A DNA stretch of 15,026 nt from a virus (Duplodnaviria; Heunggongvirae; Uroviricota; Caudoviricetes), in the IMG/VR virus record IMGVR_UViG_3300025735_000005; one strand, written 5' to 3'. The notes beneath the pieces are model-generated. The model did not search any database and was not told where the DNA came from. It was given only the letters and a program-made list of their open reading frames with translations. This document shows, piece after piece, positions 4,502-15,026 of this stretch (position 1 is its first letter; every line of letters begins with the position of its first letter). Made by a program: the position numbers and the translations under genes.

Positions 4502-5200
4502 TTAGACAAAGCAATACTCTGAATCTAGCACTAGAGACAGATCTAGAGTACCGAATTGCACTTCACTGATATCGCCCTGAATAGCTTCCATAATCTCGCC
4601 AAGCGGATCAGCATAGTACAACTCTAAGAAAGTTTTACGAATTAATTTAAACAGCTCTGGCATATCTGCAAGCAGACAACCAAAGCTATCATGAATTGTT
4701 GTAATTGGAAAATCAGCTTGTGCTACGGTCATTGTCAGATGAGCAGCGTCTAGCGAGTGGATAGCATTAGGGCTAGCTCCTGAGACCTGTTTACCTTTAG
4801 AAGGCACCTGGTCTTCAATAAAGCAAATTGCCAATTGCAGCGTGTTTTCAAAATACCCAGTGCTTGTTCGTGGCCCTTTAGGAGGCCCGTACTGACACCA
4901 AATCTTCTTGACCTTACCTTCAGTGTAATACTGAATTACCGGAAAATTGGTGATGGGAACTGTCCACCCGAGGAATTCTCCGTTTTCTTCAGCCATTCGG
5001 CCAGCATCTTCAAAAACCGATAGAAGCTGCATAGGTCTTTTTAATGATACTCGGCAGTCTTCATATACTAGTCGGCCAAGATAAGAACCCCAGCGATGCT
5101 CCATAAACAGAAGCTTGTCAATACCATGCTTCTTGCTGTCATCGATCTGCTGCTGCCCCAGCCCAAATGGAGTCCCTCCATAAGGTAGTGTCATTACATT
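4502..5200 (-). CDS. T7-type single-subunit RNA polymerase, exon 2 (232 aa)
   Basis: Begins NVMTLPYGG (second half of motif B) and contains SPNAIHSLDAAHL and motif C IHDSFG. It has no plausible independent start; the 24 upstream codons in the ORF track are intron sequence. Confidence 0.93.
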   Translation of the reverse strand, partial: NVMTLPYGGTPFGLGQQQIDDSKKHGIDKLLFMEHRWGSYLGRLVYEDCRVSLKRPMQLLSVFEDAGRMAEENGEFLGWTVPITNFPVIQYYTEGKVKKIWCQYGPPKGPRTSTGYFENTLQLAICFIEDQVPSKGKQVSGASPNAIHSLDAAHLTMTVAQADFPITTIHDSFGCLLADMPELFKLIRKTFLELYYADPLGEIMEAIQGDISEVQFGTLDLSLVLDSEYCFV

Positions 5201-5907
5201 CAAGTGTGTTAAATAGCTTTCGTTACGAGCTATCAACCTAGATTCGCAAATTCGCCATAGTGTAGCAAGCAAACCTCACAATACTTTGCGTAAGCTTCTT
5301 GAGGATCTTTAAAGAATCCTAGAAATTTATTACGCCCTTCAATCTTAATTTGTGCTACCCATTTTTGTTTTTGCTTATGCCAAGAAACACCCTTATAACC
5401 GCTTTTATTATTAGATTGTTTACCGCGATTAAAATGATTTTGTTGATGAGTACACGCTCTAAGATTTTCAGGTATATTATGAGAACGAATCCTATCGATA
5501 TGATCTATTGTCATCCCTTCAGGGATTGGCCCATTAAATTTTTCATAAATAAGACGGTGCTCAAAGTGATACTTTCCAGCAATGAAGATTCCAATATAAC
5601 CATCATTACGCAAAGTACCTGCAATCGAACCAGCCGGCACATTAGAATTAGGGCTATTTATCCAATATAAGTGACCATCACGATATTCAAATAGATCAAT
5701 GTAATCCATATCTACTCTTTCGGTTCTATACATCGCTGTATAGTTCAGACTATATCATATACCAAAGTTGGTACCCGGGCGCTTCGAGCCACTTGGCTCT
5801 ACGTCTTTCGACTAGTCGTTGCACCTTCCTCTTTCGAGGCTTGGCTCAGGATTGTCTACTAGAGAGTTCCCCTGAGTTCACCCGGTTTTACAAGCGCTAT
5901 GCAATTA
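5201..5907 (-). mobile_element. Group I self-splicing intron (IA2-like, 707 nt) with internal homing endonuclease
   Basis: 5' exon ends in U (AAGCGT), intron ends in G (CACTTG). P1: IGS GCGCTTG (5897-5891) pairs with exon CAAGCGT with a U-G pair at the splice site. P10: ATTGCAT pairs with 3' exon ATGTAAT. P4: CTCAGG/CCTGAG. P7: GACTA/TAGTC. Hairpins P7.1, P7.2, P8, P9 (GCGA loop) and P9.2 are present. Removal restores the reading frame. Confidence 0.95.
5233..5709 (-). CDS. Intron-encoded HNH homing endonuclease with C-terminal AP2 domain (about 158 aa)
   Basis: HNH_3-type IDHIDRIRSHNIPENLRACTHQQN, and AP2-like YKGVSWHKQKQKWVAQIKIEGRNKFLGFFKDPQEA. The ATG at 5709 (after GAAAGAG) is preferred over 5733, which lies inside P9. 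Confidence 0.92.
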   Translation of the reverse strand: MDYIDLFEYRDGHLYWINSPNSNVPAGSIAGTLRNDGYIGIFIAGKYHFEHRLIYEKFNGPIPEGMTIDHIDRIRSHNIPENLRACTHQQNHFNRGKQSNNKSGYKGVSWHKQKQKWVAQIKIEGRNKFLGFFKDPQEAYAKYCEVCLLHYGEFANLG

Positions 5908-7449
5908 ACGCTTGACAATCTTTCGTTTCTCTTTAGGATCAGTAATGCCAAGCCAGTATACTGGAGCAGCGAGATCCGCTATAAGCTTGTTTGCTTCTTT
6001 GAATGCCTTGATCTCTTCTACTAGAAATCGGCGTTGCTCGCTACGCGGCTCAGTTGCATGGATTTGCTTCTTGTAGTCAACGAGAGTATCGATGAATATA
6101 TGGCAAGCTTTAATGTCGTCCTCAGTGTATCCAGAAACTTCTTCCTTCAATCTTTCCCAAACGTGATCTGCAACATATTTGTACAAATCACCAGGAAGAT
6201 CTTGTGGCGTCAAATTAACATGAGGCGCTGTTGTTTCGTCTCTGGTCAGTGCTGTAAGATGCTGGGACCCATTGTTAGATCCATCAATAAATACTTCCAG
6301 CGAGGAGTCAAAATTAAAGTTGTTTGTGTCACCACCAGCACGCATCTGCCACATTCGAATTTTCATGAGCTCATTGCAAGCTGCAAGAAATTGCCATGGT
6401 TTATCAGCCTTCATCCAACCTTGATGAACCTTAGGGCTTTCCGCATAACTTAGCAGAATCTCTTCGTTATCCAGCGTCCATAGGTATCGATCGTGCAGTG
6501 GAATTTTATCTGTTTTCGCGCCATCTGGCCGTCCTGCATCCCCAGCCCAATTAGAGGCTATCGAGACGCATAGCCAAAAGAAACCAGCTTCTCCGATGAC
6601 TTTGCTATCATCTCGTAGAAGAAGCCCGCGCGCCAGATCCGAGCCTTGCTCATGAAGGTACGCCGTAGTGGGGTATTTACGTCCCCGGAAGTCATAGTAA
6701 TAAAGATGGTAAAATGTCTTACCGATAAATCTTCTAGCCAAGTCACCGATAACTTTAGACTCCCGCAGTTTTGTTGCGCGGGCGTCAGGATTTTGTTGTT
6801 CCCAGATATCGGAGAATGCATCTGTCTTATTCTTCAAAGCCCACTTCTGAACCTCGTAGATATCCTTATTAATGCGCCAACCTATTTCTTGAGCCTTGTT
6901 TAAACAAGTGAACAGCATTGGATGGGTTTCAGGCGTAATCTGGTCGAGGACATCGCGACTGCCAGTCTTCACCATAGACATACCGTTCTCATGCTTGGTA
7001 GACATCCAAGGCGCATATGGCTCTGTCGCCGGAAGCTTCTCCGAGCGAGCAGACGCAACCGATGACCAAAGTGAACAGATGGTTTCATCGTCTACGACTT
7101 GAACAATATAGGCAGCATGCCCTTTATTACCCTGCCCCAGCGCCATCTTTGTCATCATGAGCTGCTCAAAAGACCACAGTAAAAATGTACCTGTCTTAGC
7201 GGCAAGACCCGAGTCTCTTTTTAATTTTAATTTTGTTCTGACAGAATGCCCAATCGCAGCAACCATTTCGGTAAGGTATAGCGCCGCGTTTCTATTACCC
7301 TTCTTTGCGCGAGTGTGCAGATACACCACAGAAATTAAAGTATCAAGATATTCGTCAATATCATAATTCTTCAAAAACTTAAGAGGGTTACGTGGGGAGA
7401 TCTCGGTGTTAAGCCTAGACTTAATGCTAGCTTTTAGCTTTTCTCTCAT
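5908..7449 (-). CDS. T7-type single-subunit RNA polymerase, exon 1 (514 aa; spliced product 746 aa)
   Basis: Contains YYDFRGRKY, KPWQFLAAC, motif A IDGSNNGSQH, DLYKYVA, and ends KRKIVKR (first half of motif B). AGGGG Shine-Dalgarno and ATGA coupling at the start. Confidence 0.95.
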
Positions 7450-8834: not shown

Positions 8835-9230
8835 TCACAAGAACAAATCCTTGACGCTCGCCTTAGCTTTCGGGGTAGTAGGCACCCCAAGGACTGTCTC
8901 AACAACAGGCGTATTCATCAAGTCATATAACTTAGCGCGTGCAGACCAAACGGCATCATACAGATGAATACCACCACCGCGTACAGAGCCTTTCGGATGG
9001 ACGAGCGTGACTGAGTAAGAGCCAATCTGGCTGTCGTAGCCTGGCGGGTCTAACTCAATTGTCATTTTATATCCAGCTGTTTCAGTGAACAGCTTCATGA
9101 GCGCCATATCGAGTTCTATAAGCTCTTCGCGACTCTTTGGGATTGGTGTATTTATCCAATCGTTGCGGCGTTTACTTTCGGTCGCCCACGCGATTTCTCT
9201 CTCGCGACGTGTTGGTCCTTTGTACGTCAT
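8835..9230 (-). CDS. Hypothetical protein (probable start MTYKGPT at 9230)
   Basis: AGGAAGG Shine-Dalgarno before the ATG at 9230; 131-aa ORF of protein-like composition. Confidence 0.75.
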   Translation of the reverse strand: MTYKGPTRREREIAWATESKRRNDWINTPIPKSREELIELDMALMKLFTETAGYKMTIELDPPGYDSQIGSYSVTLVHPKGSVRGGGIHLYDAVWSARAKLYDLMNTPVVETVLGVPTTPKAKASVKDLFL

Positions 9231-9597
9231 TTGAGGCCTTCCTATAAAAATTATGTGGACCAACCCTCGTAGTCAGCTTCAGCTGAGGCCAACTAACGCG
9301 GGATTTGGTTGTCTTAAAGAAAGTGGCGCCATATGTATTATCATTACCTAGGTTTTCAGCCAAAGACAATGCCATATTCCACTGCTTCCAGTCAGCTGTC
9401 TTTGGATTAATTCGCTGAGTAAAGCTAAGTCTTGCTGGTGCGAACTGCCCTGGGCGTCTTACCTCTTGCGCCACAGAAGTTCTCTCCTGTTTGACTCTAT
9501 TCATCACAACATGACCTACAGCGCGCATCTCGTCTCGAGAGCAACCTCTGCATTCGCCGAACATAGTAAGAGCCAAGAGGAGTAAAGTACCTGTCAC
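9172..9597 (-). CDS. SleB-like (Hydrolase_2) cell wall hydrolase
   Basis: LALTMFGECRG...AVGHVVMNRV...PGQF...DNTYGATFFKT...RVGPHNFYR is the Hydrolase_2 pattern, including the catalytic Glu in FGE. Confidence 0.88.
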   Translation of the reverse strand: MTGTLLLLALTMFGECRGCSRDEMRAVGHVVMNRVKQERTSVAQEVRRPGQFAPARLSFTQRINPKTADWKQWNMALSLAENLGNDNTYGATFFKTTKSRVSWPQLKLTTRVGPHNFYRKASNDVQRTNTSRERNRVGDRK

Positions 9598-10858: not shown

Positions 10859-10886
10859 ATATAAGATGGCTGATTTTGCGTGTCAA
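10858..10886 (-). promoter_or_regulatory. Sigma70-like early promoter repeat, copy 3
   Basis: TTGACA-CGCAAAATCAGCCATCT-TATATG; perfect -35 consensus, overlapping the endolysin stop codon. Confidence 0.82.
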
Positions 10887-11422
10887 GCTTCGGAAGTTGA
10901 TAGCGATCCATTTGCAGCCATGAAGTATGGCTTATAGCTACGAGGCAAACCCGTGGTAAAAGGCACCTGGCGGGCCTTATACAGCCGCTTCTTTTCAATG
11001 CGCGTAAAGCAAACCTTGTCGCTTTGATTACCACCTAACACATGGTAGGCAGTGGCATCTTCAGCGATATAGAGGGCTACATGCCCACCACCCTCTCGCT
11101 TGAATGTCAGTACATCGCCTAGCGAAGGTTTAGACGATGCCTTTCCAAAGGAAGACCAATTCAGCGCGTATAGAGGGCCAACCGGCAATTTCTTACCAGC
11201 ACGCTGCGCGATGACAGCCATAAACAGCCCACACCAAGGTACATCATCGCCAGTATACTTGTAACCCAGCTTAGTGTCACCGACCTCTTCAGCCCATGAC
11301 ATAATAGTTGGATTACTGGCTTTTCCCGGCTTTTCAGTAGTACCCAGCAGCTGCAGAGCATGCTGCACCATAAGAGGAAGAGTGCCTACGGTATCCAGCC
11401 AGGCGTATTCCACAGGAATCAT
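10883..11422 (-). CDS. Endolysin, NlpC/P60-CHAP-like peptidase (TIGR02594-like)
   Basis: DVPWCGLFMA (catalytic Cys), ALNWSSFG, GDVLTFKREGGGHVALY (catalytic His), HVLGGNQSDKV; located next to a holin-like gene. Confidence 0.88.
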   Translation of the reverse strand: MIPVEYAWLDTVGTLPLMVQHALQLLGTTEKPGKASNPTIMSWAEEVGDTKLGYKYTGDDVPWCGLFMAVIAQRAGKKLPVGPLYALNWSSFGKASSKPSLGDVLTFKREGGGHVALYIAEDATAYHVLGGNQSDKVCFTRIEKKRLYKARQVPFTTGLPRSYKPYFMAANGSLSTSEA

Positions 11423-11938: not shown

Positions 11939-12508
11939 CTAAGATTTCTGCGTAGCATAATCCTTAATCGCATTCTGGCGCGTTTCAGAGGTGCTGGAGG
12001 CTTCCCTGCGCCCACACGCGTCGCCGTGCCCAGCGACAGTTTTTGCTTTGCTACTGTGCCATTTTGTGCGCCGCGTGAGCATCCGCCCGGTCCAGCGCCA
12101 GTTATTTTTCTCTAAGATACGTTTGAAAGTTTCTGAAGAACTAGAAATTACGCTACTTGTAAGAACAATCTCGTATCTACGCTGTTCTGCCCAATTAAAT
12201 AAATGTTCGTGGAATTCTATTAAAGCCTTAACCGCCTTGGTGCCACGTAACGTTGTATGGTAGTACAGTTGTGTTAGAGCTTTTATAGGACTGTGATAAT
12301 TACCAGCCCCATCGCAAGCTAAAAGCCATCCCACAACTATACCATCGATTTCCATTACTTTGAAATAAGACTGGCGCAGATAGAATTCAAATGCTTTCCG
12401 ACAACTAACCTCGTCAGATGGAAAATCCTCATCGTTTTCATCAAAGAATAAAGTAGAGGACATTCTATATATTGCATTAAAATCGCTTCTACGACCAGTC
12501 CGTATCAT
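11939..12508 (-). CDS. GNAT-fold acetyltransferase-like protein
   Basis: MIRTGRRSDFNAIYRM (beta1-alpha1), FKVMEIDGIVVGWLLA (beta2-beta3), LYYHTTLRGTKAVKAL (motif A-like), FKRILEKNNW (motif B-like). ATGA coupling to the tail gene. Confidence 0.7.
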   Translation of the reverse strand: MIRTGRRSDFNAIYRMSSTLFFDENDEDFPSDEVSCRKAFEFYLRQSYFKVMEIDGIVVGWLLACDGAGNYHSPIKALTQLYYHTTLRGTKAVKALIEFHEHLFNWAEQRRYEIVLTSSVISSSSETFKRILEKNNWRWTGRMLTRRTKWHSSKAKTVAGHGDACGRREASSTSETRQNAIKDYATQKS

Positions 12509-15026
12509 GGCTGTAATGCCTTTGTATTGTGTGAAAGAATATTATTGGAAATATAACTTTGCGCGCCTTTTACTGTAATCTTAACAATAGTTGTCGTACC
12601 AGCCGGTTCACCTAGGCATTCAAGCCTAACCCATTGGTTATCCATCCACACTAGATGCCCTTGTGTACCTCGTAGAATATTGCCATTTATATTTGCTTGG
12701 TATACTTCAGATTCAGCAAACTCAACATGTGTCACAGGGAATACTCCCCACTCCTTATTTAAATGATGCTGAGTCTTAACGTAATCTCCAATTTGGATAG
12801 CACTGGCTGTCTTCTGTGTGTCATCAGACATTAGAATTAGTGTATCGTGACTTACACAGTAACCACCGCCGCCGTCACCACCGCCATAACTTCCGCCTGG
12901 CGTACCGCTTCCATTGTTCTGATTAACTGGCTCAGAAGTACCTGAGGCATTTGCAATAGTTGCTTGTCTAAGCTCGGTAACTTCTAACGTCACACCTTCA
13001 CGTACAATTGTAGGGCCTTCTACTTCTAAACTAGTAACATTAAATGAAACACTATGGCTGCCGGCTGCAATACCTGATAAAAATACAAAAGCAGTAAGAG
13101 GCCCTTCGGCTCGTGAATCTGCATTATCAAAGATCATATTATATCTAGCACGCTGCACAATATCGCCATCTAGATAGATATCGGCATACATAATTAAATC
13201 ATCTTGATTGTAAACTTGTCCATAAGCTTGAATTTTGAGGAGACTATTAGAGTCTTCTTTATAAAAAGTATAACCAAGAACTTGCTGATTGATATTACGG
13301 TAACAATTAGTAGGAATCGAGCTGTACGTAAAAGAAGTTTTGGCAGCAGCTGCTAGTTGTACGTTATTAACAGCAACGCTCTTAGCTGCAAGAGTATCTA
13401 TCTCAACATTATGCATCTTAACGCCAGCTTCGCTAGCAATAAAATATGGATCTCCTGTGTCAGGGTCAATGATAGAAAACTTATCAGAAGTAAAAATGAT
13501 ATCTGAGGTTTCGCCTTGATTGATGATGTCCATACCTACAATTCGTTTAGAACCGTCCGAGGCTGTCTCAACACGAATTGTAGCGCGGGCGATAGTACCG
13601 CTAGGGTCTGCAAGAGTCGTCTCAAGTGTTTCAACGCGTGCTGACGCATCGCCAGCAACAGAGGATACAGTTGAAATTTGCTGTGATAAGGCTGTATCAG
13701 CATTAGCTCTATTCAGCTGCTCTTGGGATATTGCAGATGTATTACCGCTGACATCCTGCTGTAGTTGAGTTGTATTTGTAATAAGTGTATTAATATCATT
13801 GCGTGCAGCATCAAGAGCATTTGAAAGAGTTTCATCAACGGCCGCAATAGAACTTATGACAGTTTCAGGAGACATCACATACTGAAATTGCTTACGAGCA
13901 GAAATAGAGGTAAGCTCATTTCCATCTTTAACAGAAACTGATATAACTTTAGAGGGTGCGTCTGTGAATTGAGCTACAATGAAAGTAGCTGCTGTAGCAT
14001 TAGCCACAGGAGCGTCGTCAATGTACCACTGGTAAGATGGCGAAGTAAACCCAGATATTGAAGCCGAAACTTGAATAGCAGAAGGCGATACACTGCTTCC
14101 ATTGTTTACAAAGAATTGAGAAGGCGCATTTATAGAAACAGACCTAATCCAGTTATGCGATAGATCTTGTGCATCTGTAGGATCTGTAATTGTCATTGCA
14201 GACATACGACCACTGGTGGACAAAGTACGTACACCGAAGAATGCACTAGCAGCATCCACAGCTGGCATTACAAATGTAGGTTCAGAATTTCTACCGACTT
14301 CGTTGTATACTGGAGCACCGTTTGCCTCAGTCGCATCTATGCCTGCACGATGCATATAAAATACATAGCCAGCAAGTTCAGAGAAAGTGACAGAGCTGCA
14401 TTCAAGTATACCAGAGGAAGCGACATTGCTGTCTAAGTTAGGTGTATATGTAATATCACGAGGTTGTGGTATACCCACACCATATGGATTTGGTGGGGTA
14501 ATATACACATCGTCTTTAATGCTCCAAGCAAGCTGCGTGTAATCAAACCTAGTAGCTTCAATAGTACACTGGTCATCGCCTGAAACCTTAGAGCTATCAA
14601 CACGGAGGTATACTGGGACTTCAACGCCTACTTTTAGTGTTTGGCTTTCAAGTCTAATATAATCGCCAGGCTCATAGTAACGATCCCTAATAACATATTT
14701 AAACTTATAACCAGTAGCGCTTCGACTTGTACGACAAATTTCTTCTGCCTTTGCCAGTGCGTGCTGGGGATCTGTAATAGCTTCCGCGAATATATCAGTC
14801 TCTAACGAAAGACCATTATCCTCTTCTAACATGGCCTGATATATTGTATCAGTCTCAGAGACTTGTGCAAAATCATCATAAGCAATATCACGAGACGTGA
14901 ACAGAATTTTATTTGAACTTTCAATACTAACAGAAACACCGTAAAAATCTTGGTCTTTACCAGTGCTTGTATTAGTTACGGAAACTGCGATCTTGTAAAG
15001 TTTTCTTCCAGTTTGGCTACCTAGCG
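12505..15026 (-). CDS. Central tail fibre / host-specificity protein (TipJ-like), 5'-partial, with C-terminal Hint domain
   Basis: The frame stays open from 14832 to the window edge (LGSQTGRKLYKIAV...TIYQAMLEED). It contains a Phage-tail_3-like segment (RYYEPGDYIRLES), Ig/Fn3-like beta regions, a heptad coiled coil (about TLSNALDAAR...VETLETT), a DUF1983-like region (IVGMDII...IIFTSDKFSIIDP), a Gly-rich linker and then Hint. Confidence 0.85.
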   Translation of the reverse strand, partial: LGSQTGRKLYKIAVSVTNTSTGKDQDFYGVSVSIESSNKILFTSRDIAYDDFAQVSETDTIYQAMLEEDNGLSLETDIFAEAITDPQHALAKAEEICRTSRSATGYKFKYVIRDRYYEPGDYIRLESQTLKVGVEVPVYLRVDSSKVSGDDQCTIEATRFDYTQLAWSIKDDVYITPPNPYGVGIPQPRDITYTPNLDSNVASSGILECSSVTFSELAGYVFYMHRAGIDATEANGAPVYNEVGRNSEPTFVMPAVDAASAFFGVRTLSTSGRMSAMTITDPTDAQDLSHNWIRSVSINAPSQFFVNNGSSVSPSAIQVSASISGFTSPSYQWYIDDAPVANATAATFIVAQFTDAPSKVISVSVKDGNELTSISARKQFQYVMSPETVISSIAAVDETLSNALDAARNDINTLITNTTQLQQDVSGNTSAISQEQLNRANADTALSQQISTVSSVAGDASARVETLETTLADPSGTIARATIRVETASDGSKRIVGMDIINQGETSDIIFTSDKFSIIDPDTGDPYFIASEAGVKMHNVEIDTLAAKSVAVNNVQLAAAAKTSFTYSSIPTNCYRNINQQVLGYTFYKEDSNSLLKIQAYGQVYNQDDLIMYADIYLDGDIVQRARYNMIFDNADSRAEGPLTAFVFLSGIAAGSHSVSFNVTSLEVEGPTIVREGVTLEVTELRQATIANASGTSEPVNQNNGSGTPGGSYGGGDGGGGYCVSHDTLILMSDDTQKTASAIQIGDYVKTQHHLNKEWGVFPVTHVEFAESEVYQANINGNILRGTQGHLVWMDNQWVRLECLGEPAGTTTIVKITVKGAQSYISNNILSHNTKALQP
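12526..12858 (-). other. Hint (intein/Hedgehog-like) domain, 111 aa, within the tail protein
   Basis: Block A CVSHDTLILMSD starting at Cys, IQIGDYV, block B RGTQGHLV (TxxH), block G ILSHN followed by Thr. Confidence 0.85.

Follow-up and report, generated by a model that had tools for sequence, protein, structure and literature searches.

The stretch of DNA analyzed here (the window) comprises 15,026 nucleotides of the IMG/VR virus record IMGVR_UViG_3300025735_000005 and corresponds to bases 62012-77037 of this 79,024-bp record, which carries direct terminal repeats, is rated complete and comes from an uncultured phage. All the genes of the window are on the minus strand. The 3' 2.5 kb of a J-like tail-tip (central fibre) gene occupy positions 12505..15026 of this strand, as defined by the open reading frame and its translation, and the gene continues past the end of the window; its full-length product, taken from the protein database and called here P0002, has 1383 amino acids. 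This work deals with the C-terminus of this protein, where a domain predicted to adopt the Hint fold, of the bacterial-intein-like (BIL) kind, is placed between a Gly-rich linker and a tail of only six residues, and with the role that such a cassette could have on the tail tip of a phage.

The cassette starts with the linker GSGTPGGSYGGGDGGGGY, 18 residues encoded at 12859..12912 (all the features of the cassette are on the minus strand), whose Tyr is residue -1. The Hint domain itself, as delimited by profile, AlphaFold (AF2) model and Foldseek, covers 111 residues from Cys1 through the terminal Asn (12526..12858). Cys1 (12856..12858) is the nucleophile for the N-S acyl shift, and at the other end the terminal His-Asn pair (block G, 12526..12531) is followed by the tail TKALQP (12508..12525), in which Thr is residue +1 (12525-12523) and Lys residue +2 (12522-12520), and by the stop codon of the gene (12505-12507). 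An original prediction, made from the letters of the window, had described the linker, Cys1, His-Asn, Thr +1 and the TKALQP-stop end, and all of them are present at their positions. Block B of the TxxH type had also been anticipated, and alignment to solved inteins places the true one at T-Q-G-H, 12655..12666 (Thr 12666-12664, His 12657-12655). The motif TQHH at 12763-12774 is specific to the family, where most relatives have TQHE, and is not block B. The equivalent of block F, IVKITVKGAQSYISNN (12541..12588), has the Lys of IVKITV aligned with the Asp of solved inteins, and Gln in the place of the His that is usual in the family. There is no endonuclease insert in these 111 residues, as had also been proposed. 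Altogether, the Hint domain, catalytically intact as judged by its residues, and its tail are the last 117 residues of the protein, and their coding sequence shows no compositional anomaly, with a G+C fraction of 0.39 in the Hint region vs. 0.41 in the rest of the gene.

The assignment of this domain to the Hint fold came from its family. The P0002 sequence itself scored below the gathering thresholds of all the Pfam and NCBIfam Hint models (E of 0.03-0.05 for Hom_end_hint and 0.056 for Intein_splicing), a direct PHROG scan of its C-terminus gave Hint matches that were sub-threshold only, and a single-sequence phmmer search against the PDB returned nothing relevant. Relatives were gathered with phmmer, run exhaustively over 1.84 billion cluster representatives; 377 of these matched at E<=1e-3, with 69 of them reaching E<=1e-10, and a family profile was built from 52 relatives. 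When compared with the PDB, this profile matched the Hint-containing protein 8w20 (E 9e-11), the NpuDnaB mini-intein (E 1.4e-10), BIL2 of Tetrahymena (E 2e-10), Ssp DnaB (E 1e-9) and the BIL domain of C. thermocellum (2lwy, E 2e-7), with a weak match to Hedgehog (E 0.1-0.2). Among these same 52 relatives, the Intein_splicing model reaches E<=0.01 in only 22, and weak PT-HINT matches are found in 10. The AF2 model computed on the 52-relative alignment has a predicted local distance difference test score (pLDDT) of 89.9, with the linker and the tail disordered (pLDDT below 50 for the Gly linker), and it matched 47 Hint structures with a Foldseek probability of 1.00 and E<=1e-3; BIL2, the DnaB mini-inteins, 2lwy, gp41-1, NpuDnaE, a Vint domain and Hedgehog (1at0), all with probability 1.00, are at the top. 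In this way, the search with profile models proposed in the original prediction stayed sub-threshold for the P0002 sequence against the curated Hint models, but succeeded with the family profile and with the predicted structure, and on these two we consider the Hint fold of the P0002 C-terminus a secure assignment.

In order to know what the family conserves, we analyzed 143 complete domains from 133 representatives, each of them standing for one cluster at 50% identity. Cys1, the His of block B and the terminal His-Asn are invariant (143/143), and the Thr of block B is Thr or Ser in 140 domains. The Asp whose absence from block F had been noted in P0002 is not found in any of the 143, and its position is mostly basic (Lys in 77 and Arg in 24, 101 in total); the His position of block F has His in 116 domains, Arg in 10 and Gln in 6. 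Residue +1 is Lys in 42 domains, Ile in 39, Leu in 17, Val in 15, Ala in 13 and Thr in 4, in such a way that Cys, Ser or Thr occupy it in only 7 of the 143. By contrast, Lys is present at +1 or +2 in 137 of them, P0002 included, vs. around 11% to be anticipated from a Lys content of 5-6%, a rough estimate and not a computed figure. For domains located at the very end of the protein, the proportion is 95/96, and the lone exception has its Lys at +3. Lys statistics from loci selected with a sequence pattern (see below) were left out, as they are biased by the search pattern. The tails are of 10 residues or fewer in 83 of the 143 domains and are otherwise unconserved in sequence, and the 15 residues that precede Cys1 have a median of 40% Gly among relatives.

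The frequencies of 7/143 for a Cys, Ser or Thr at +1 and of 137/143 for a Lys at +1 or +2 argue that the family is not selected for classical class 1 splicing. The complete set of splicing nucleophiles described in the original prediction is thus a property of P0002 and not of its family, and the alignment indicates that the Thr +1 of P0002 is an incidental, tolerated variant, the selected residue being apparently the Lys. From the concurrent conservation of Cys1, block B His, His-Asn and Lys we infer selection for chemistry at both junctions; the conserved Asn and Lys argue that the C-terminal junction would react as well as the N-terminal one, and conservation at both of them goes beyond what an N-terminal cleavage in the style of Hedgehog would need by itself.

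P0002 departs from its family at two positions, with Gln for the His of block F and His for the Glu of TQHE. The same pairing, with extra His residues after TQH and Gln in block F, was observed in P0004, its closest relative. It may reflect a His that has shifted to compensate, or else a metal site like that of BIL2, although the cases are few. Tandem Hint arrays were also observed in the relatives P0003, P0132, P0145 and P0114; P0132 has eight Hint matches, some of them partial, separated by 1-4 residues (...VHN-K-GG-C...), and Lys appears there again directly after the Asn.

The proteins that carry the cassette are diverse. Among those with a terminal Hint, 73 have an upstream region long enough for comparison, and when the 150 residues preceding the linker are compared with BLAST, 28 groups result that show no similarity to each other, and several of the carriers are J-like (PF13550, FNIII-A_GpJ). 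A megablast search of the region against the INPHARED phages gave no match, and a tblastn search of the same collection, with the Hint domain of P0002 and that of a more typical member, gave a single one, the uncultured record MT835519, where the carrier is a J-like protein of 734 amino acids ending in ...SHN-IKQQEQLQ; therefore, no isolated phage in INPHARED carries the Hint family. A search of loci with a deliberately narrow pattern, derived from 12 of the closer sequences, detected the family in 102 contigs of IMG/VR and at 16 sites in the genome records of bacteria. These bacterial carriers (L085-L100) belong to the subfamily closest to the consensus and are nearly all Sphingomonadales, several of them strains from culture collections; cultured carriers include Stakelama pacifica DSM 25059, Sphingomonas desiccabilis CP1D, S. 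melonis AS2.3, S. glacialis CGMCC 1.8957 and S. zeicaulis, and Sphingopyxis. In locus L085 the Hint gene adjoins a gene of the tail module (DUF6950), as it does in the phage locus L004, and the copies found in bacterial genomes are probably prophages.

A survey of homologous tail proteins for presence or absence of the Hint domain, as suggested in the original prediction, was possible within a small set, that of the four known proteins that share the distal domain of P0002. Three of them (P0002, P0004 and P0006) have the Hint domain and the fourth, P0152, does not. P0152 (locus L003, 4001-7615) is 49% identical in this TNF-like distal domain and keeps a Gly tail, ...GGGGGGGY, after which only the seven residues NPNVNIA are found before the stop. 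A Hint remnant was not detectable in the 11.6 kb around P0152, and further relatives of the distal domain, with or without Hint, were not found among shorter proteins, in IMG/VR or in metagenome contigs. P0152 looks like the "empty" allele of the cassette site, and its existence, without Hint and with the Gly tail, supports that the Hint domain is an optional cassette and that fibres with the Gly tail as their end are viable.

Several data identify P0002 as a tail-tip protein similar to J of lambda. Its N-terminal 560 amino acids match phrog_31, "central tail fiber J" (E 2e-20), the protein carries PF13550 according to its precomputed annotation, and a Phage_Tail_Tip segment (PF09327) is encoded at 13414..13623 of the minus strand (Pfam E 2e-5, 24.8 bits vs. 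a cutoff of 22). The last folded domain before the linker (12967..13344, minus strand) was modeled with AF2 from 4 homologues as a TNF/C1q-like jelly roll, with a mean pLDDT of 66 and values of 75-88 in the core. The model resembles trimeric lectins (the TNF-like BC2L-C and PLTL), Pgp3, and the receptor-binding tip of lambda gpJ (8xcj/8xck), with Foldseek E values of about 1e-5 to 1e-4, and with moderate confidence we consider this domain the probable receptor-binding domain.

As for the phage itself, its nearest isolated relatives by DNA polymerase are the roseophages DSS3_PM1 and DSS3_VP1, with around 32% identity, which places this uncultured phage among the distant relatives of siphophages from marine Alphaproteobacteria. 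Downstream of the tail-tip gene lies a gene for a protein of 189 amino acids (11939..12508, minus strand), whose ATG overlaps the stop codon of the former (ATGA). The last codons of the Hint tail double in this way as the ribosome-binding region of the 189-residue gene, an arrangement of translational coupling through the ATGA. The product is GNAT-like, with a weak match to an acetyltransferase (phrog_1249, E 9e-6) and no match in Pfam. It was considered as a conserved partner of the Hint domain and was rejected, as a homologue is absent from about 98 other Hint-bearing fibre loci. Further downstream, two genes of the cell-wall hydrolase type are located at 10883-11422 and 9172-9597 (minus strand); one of them is similar to baseplate hub lysozymes (phrog_1259, E 4e-23, with a weak CHAP match) and the other belongs to Hydrolase_2 (PF07486, E 1e-11). 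The gene for a T7-type RNA polymerase is split into two pieces (5905-7449 and 4502-5272, minus strand) with an open reading frame for an HNH endonuclease (5233-5733) between them, and interruptions bearing HNH are found in this phage in both the RNA polymerase and the terminase genes.

We interpret the cassette, with a probability that we set at around 0.6, as a domesticated and portable BIL-like maturation module that removes itself, a cap for the C-terminus rather than a mobile intein. Hint domains form a thioester at Cys1 through an N-S acyl shift, and those with a terminal Asn can cut the C-terminal junction by cyclization of this residue. Transferred to P0002, and in keeping with what the family conserves, this chemistry would operate after translation or after fibre assembly as follows. 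Cys1 would attack the carbonyl of Tyr(-1), helped by the Thr and His of block B, to give the thioester, and the terminal Asn would cyclize with the assistance of the penultimate His, cutting the C-terminal junction. Resolution of the thioester would then come from water or from one of two amines in the tail, the epsilon-amine of the conserved Lys +2 and the alpha-amine that residue +1 exposes once freed. Either route would free the Hint domain, and the mature fibre would terminate at ...GGGGY or carry the six-residue tail after it as a cap, in such a way that the release of Hint from the fibre appears as the most likely net outcome. BIL domains that lack a +1 nucleophile yield mainly cleaved products (PMC7664689; PMC7765530). 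The cap could help folding or assembly, or could mask the tip until assembly.

Several points weigh against this interpretation. The cleavage of any member of the family is deduced from sequence and from Hint chemistry, and the two departures of P0002, Gln in block F and His in TQHH, might make this copy slower or altered in its activity. The role given to the conserved Lys is by analogy with BIL2, whose Lys sits deeper in the C-extein, and just one homologue of the distal domain without Hint was found. A prediction of a three-copy Hint complex, carried out with a trimerizing chaperone in mind, gave a score of 0.00 and has no bearing either way.

The near-universal Lys that follows the terminal Asn deserves separate attention. 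BIL2 resolves its thioester with the epsilon-amine of a lysine, giving an isopeptide bond (PMC8616854), and by analogy this Lys could be the real nucleophile of the family, in such a way that an isopeptide "splice" would cap the C-terminus of the fibre with a branched peptide, or would cross-link through isopeptide bonds either the three chains of the tip or the tip and a partner. We put this forward as a tentative possibility; if true, it would mean ATP-independent covalent chemistry within the receptor-binding organelle of the virion.

Four other explanations were weighed against that of a removable cap. In a transfer similar to that of Hedgehog or BIL2, an external nucleophile, either a Lys of a neighbouring subunit or partner or an amine of the host envelope, would attack the thioester at the C-terminus of the fibre and become joined covalently to the tail tip. 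BIL2, which is the closest solved structure, links its N-extein by isopeptide bonds to lysines that belong to other proteins (PMC8616854), and a Hint domain attached flexibly, through its linker, to a TNF-like tip that is trimeric would suit such a role. However, the conserved Lys belongs to the same chain, no conserved partner gene was found (the gene downstream has no homologue in the other loci, as described above), a thioester would be too labile to last on free virions, and P0152 shows that the fibre manages without Hint, all of which makes this transfer unlikely.

Alternatively, the Hint domain could stay on the tail tip without being cut, as a knob with a permanent role in structure or adhesion. 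That cleavage is a prediction, and that P0002 carries Gln in the place of the usual block F His, would fit such a knob, but Cys1, the His of block B and His-Asn do not vary over 143 diverged domains, which points to selection for chemistry and not for the fold only, and the attachment is through a disordered Gly linker, so that we regard a retained knob as improbable.

Classical splicing of a class 1 mini-intein, in which Thr +1 would take over the thioester, Asn would cyclize and TKALQP would become peptide-bonded to ...GGGGY, is suggested by P0002 itself, with its Cys1, TxxH, His-Asn and Thr +1, and becomes quite improbable when the family is considered: only 4 of the 143 domains share this Thr, most of the others having Lys, Ile, Leu, Val or Ala at +1, the whole family lacks the Asp of block F, and the site is at the extreme C-terminus, before a non-conserved tail of 2-12 residues, and not at a conserved site of a host protein. 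Finally, a remnant of a selfish mini-intein located by chance at the 3' end of the gene is very improbable in spite of the abundance of inteins in phages and of the HNH-bearing interruptions in the RNA polymerase and terminase genes of this one, given that there is neither an endonuclease nor a conserved insertion site, the +1 nucleophile is missing family-wide, and the cassette, of normal G+C content, has spread, Gly linker included, to fibre ends of at least 28 unrelated kinds. The comparison within the family favours the view of the original prediction, that of a domesticated device for processing and not of a selfish intein: the domain lies at the extreme C-terminus, it follows at least 28 unrelated distal domains, a Gly-rich linker always precedes it, and its catalytic residues are invariant.

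Our search of the literature, outside subscription journals, did not return a description of Hint or BIL domains on phage tail fibres; the hits were of another kind, among them inteins of terminases. Within this same scope, the combination of Lys at +1/+2 with a basic residue where block F would have its Asp was not found described for inteins or BILs. To our knowledge, self-removing C-terminal domains on phage fibres are known only as intramolecular chaperones of the serine-lysine type, and a thioester-forming Hint cassette would be a second and chemically different solution to self-removal. If the cassette removes itself, the true mature C-terminus of the fibre differs from that encoded by the gene, which matters for fibre maturation and for the annotation of receptor-binding proteins. 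The family could also supply very small (about 111 amino acids) autoprocessing or lysine-ligating tags for protein engineering. Its presence in the genomes of cultured Sphingomonadales, probably as prophages, makes it directly amenable to experiment.

When compared with known systems, the functional parallel is provided by the Peptidase S74 intramolecular chaperones, as those of endosialidase and of the L-shaped tail fibres of T5, in which a C-terminal fibre domain removes itself after assembly. The likeness is in function only, as fold and chemistry (a Ser-Lys dyad) are different, and no homology is claimed. Class 1 inteins share the fold, and the family differs from them in its unconserved +1 residue, in the absence of the block F Asp and in a C-extein that in P0002 has 6 residues and lies outside a conserved host protein. 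The Pretoxin-HINT domain (PF07591) of polymorphic toxins is also located near the C-terminus of large surface or secreted proteins, but it precedes and releases a toxin domain, whereas the phage Hint has no toxin domain behind it and is followed by TKALQP only. The Hog-Hint domain of Hedgehog (1at0, Foldseek E 2.6e-5) is likewise a C-terminal Hint whose N-S acyl shift releases and modifies the N-terminal protein. A sterol-recognition region is part of Hog, which is without the terminal His-Asn; the phage family has an invariant His-Asn and no region of this type, and in P0002 only 6 residues come after the domain.

The best structural match is BIL2 of the BUBL locus of Tetrahymena thermophila (6TMM/6Y75, Foldseek E 1.6e-8), which is also among the best sequence matches and whose resolution through a Lys isopeptide (PMC8616854) is the precedent for the conserved Lys of the phage family. 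BIL2, a Zn-dependent domain, is eukaryotic and sits between two ubiquitin-like domains with its Lys in a folded C-extein, whereas the phage C-extein has 6 residues.

The closest description is that of the A-type BILs (Amitai et al. 2003; Dassa et al. 2004; 2lwy; summarized in PMC7765530 and PMC7664689), which have a terminal His-Asn without a +1 nucleophile and are found in variable, non-conserved proteins (PMC7765530). The phage family shows the same traits, with His-Asn in 143/143 domains, a +1 nucleophile in 7/143 and N-exteins in at least 28 unrelated groups, and both have in common the Hint fold, Cys1, TxxH, the lack of an endonuclease, a location in variable surface proteins and the expectation of mainly N- and C-terminal cleavage. 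This likeness rests on these features and on 2lwy (profile E 2e-7, Foldseek rank 11), and not on BIL-specific models. What distinguishes the phage family from the A-type BILs is that its domains follow a poly-Gly linker at the very C-terminal end of tail fibres, almost always have a Lys at +1/+2, show a basic residue in the place of the block F Asp and carry the TQHE motif.

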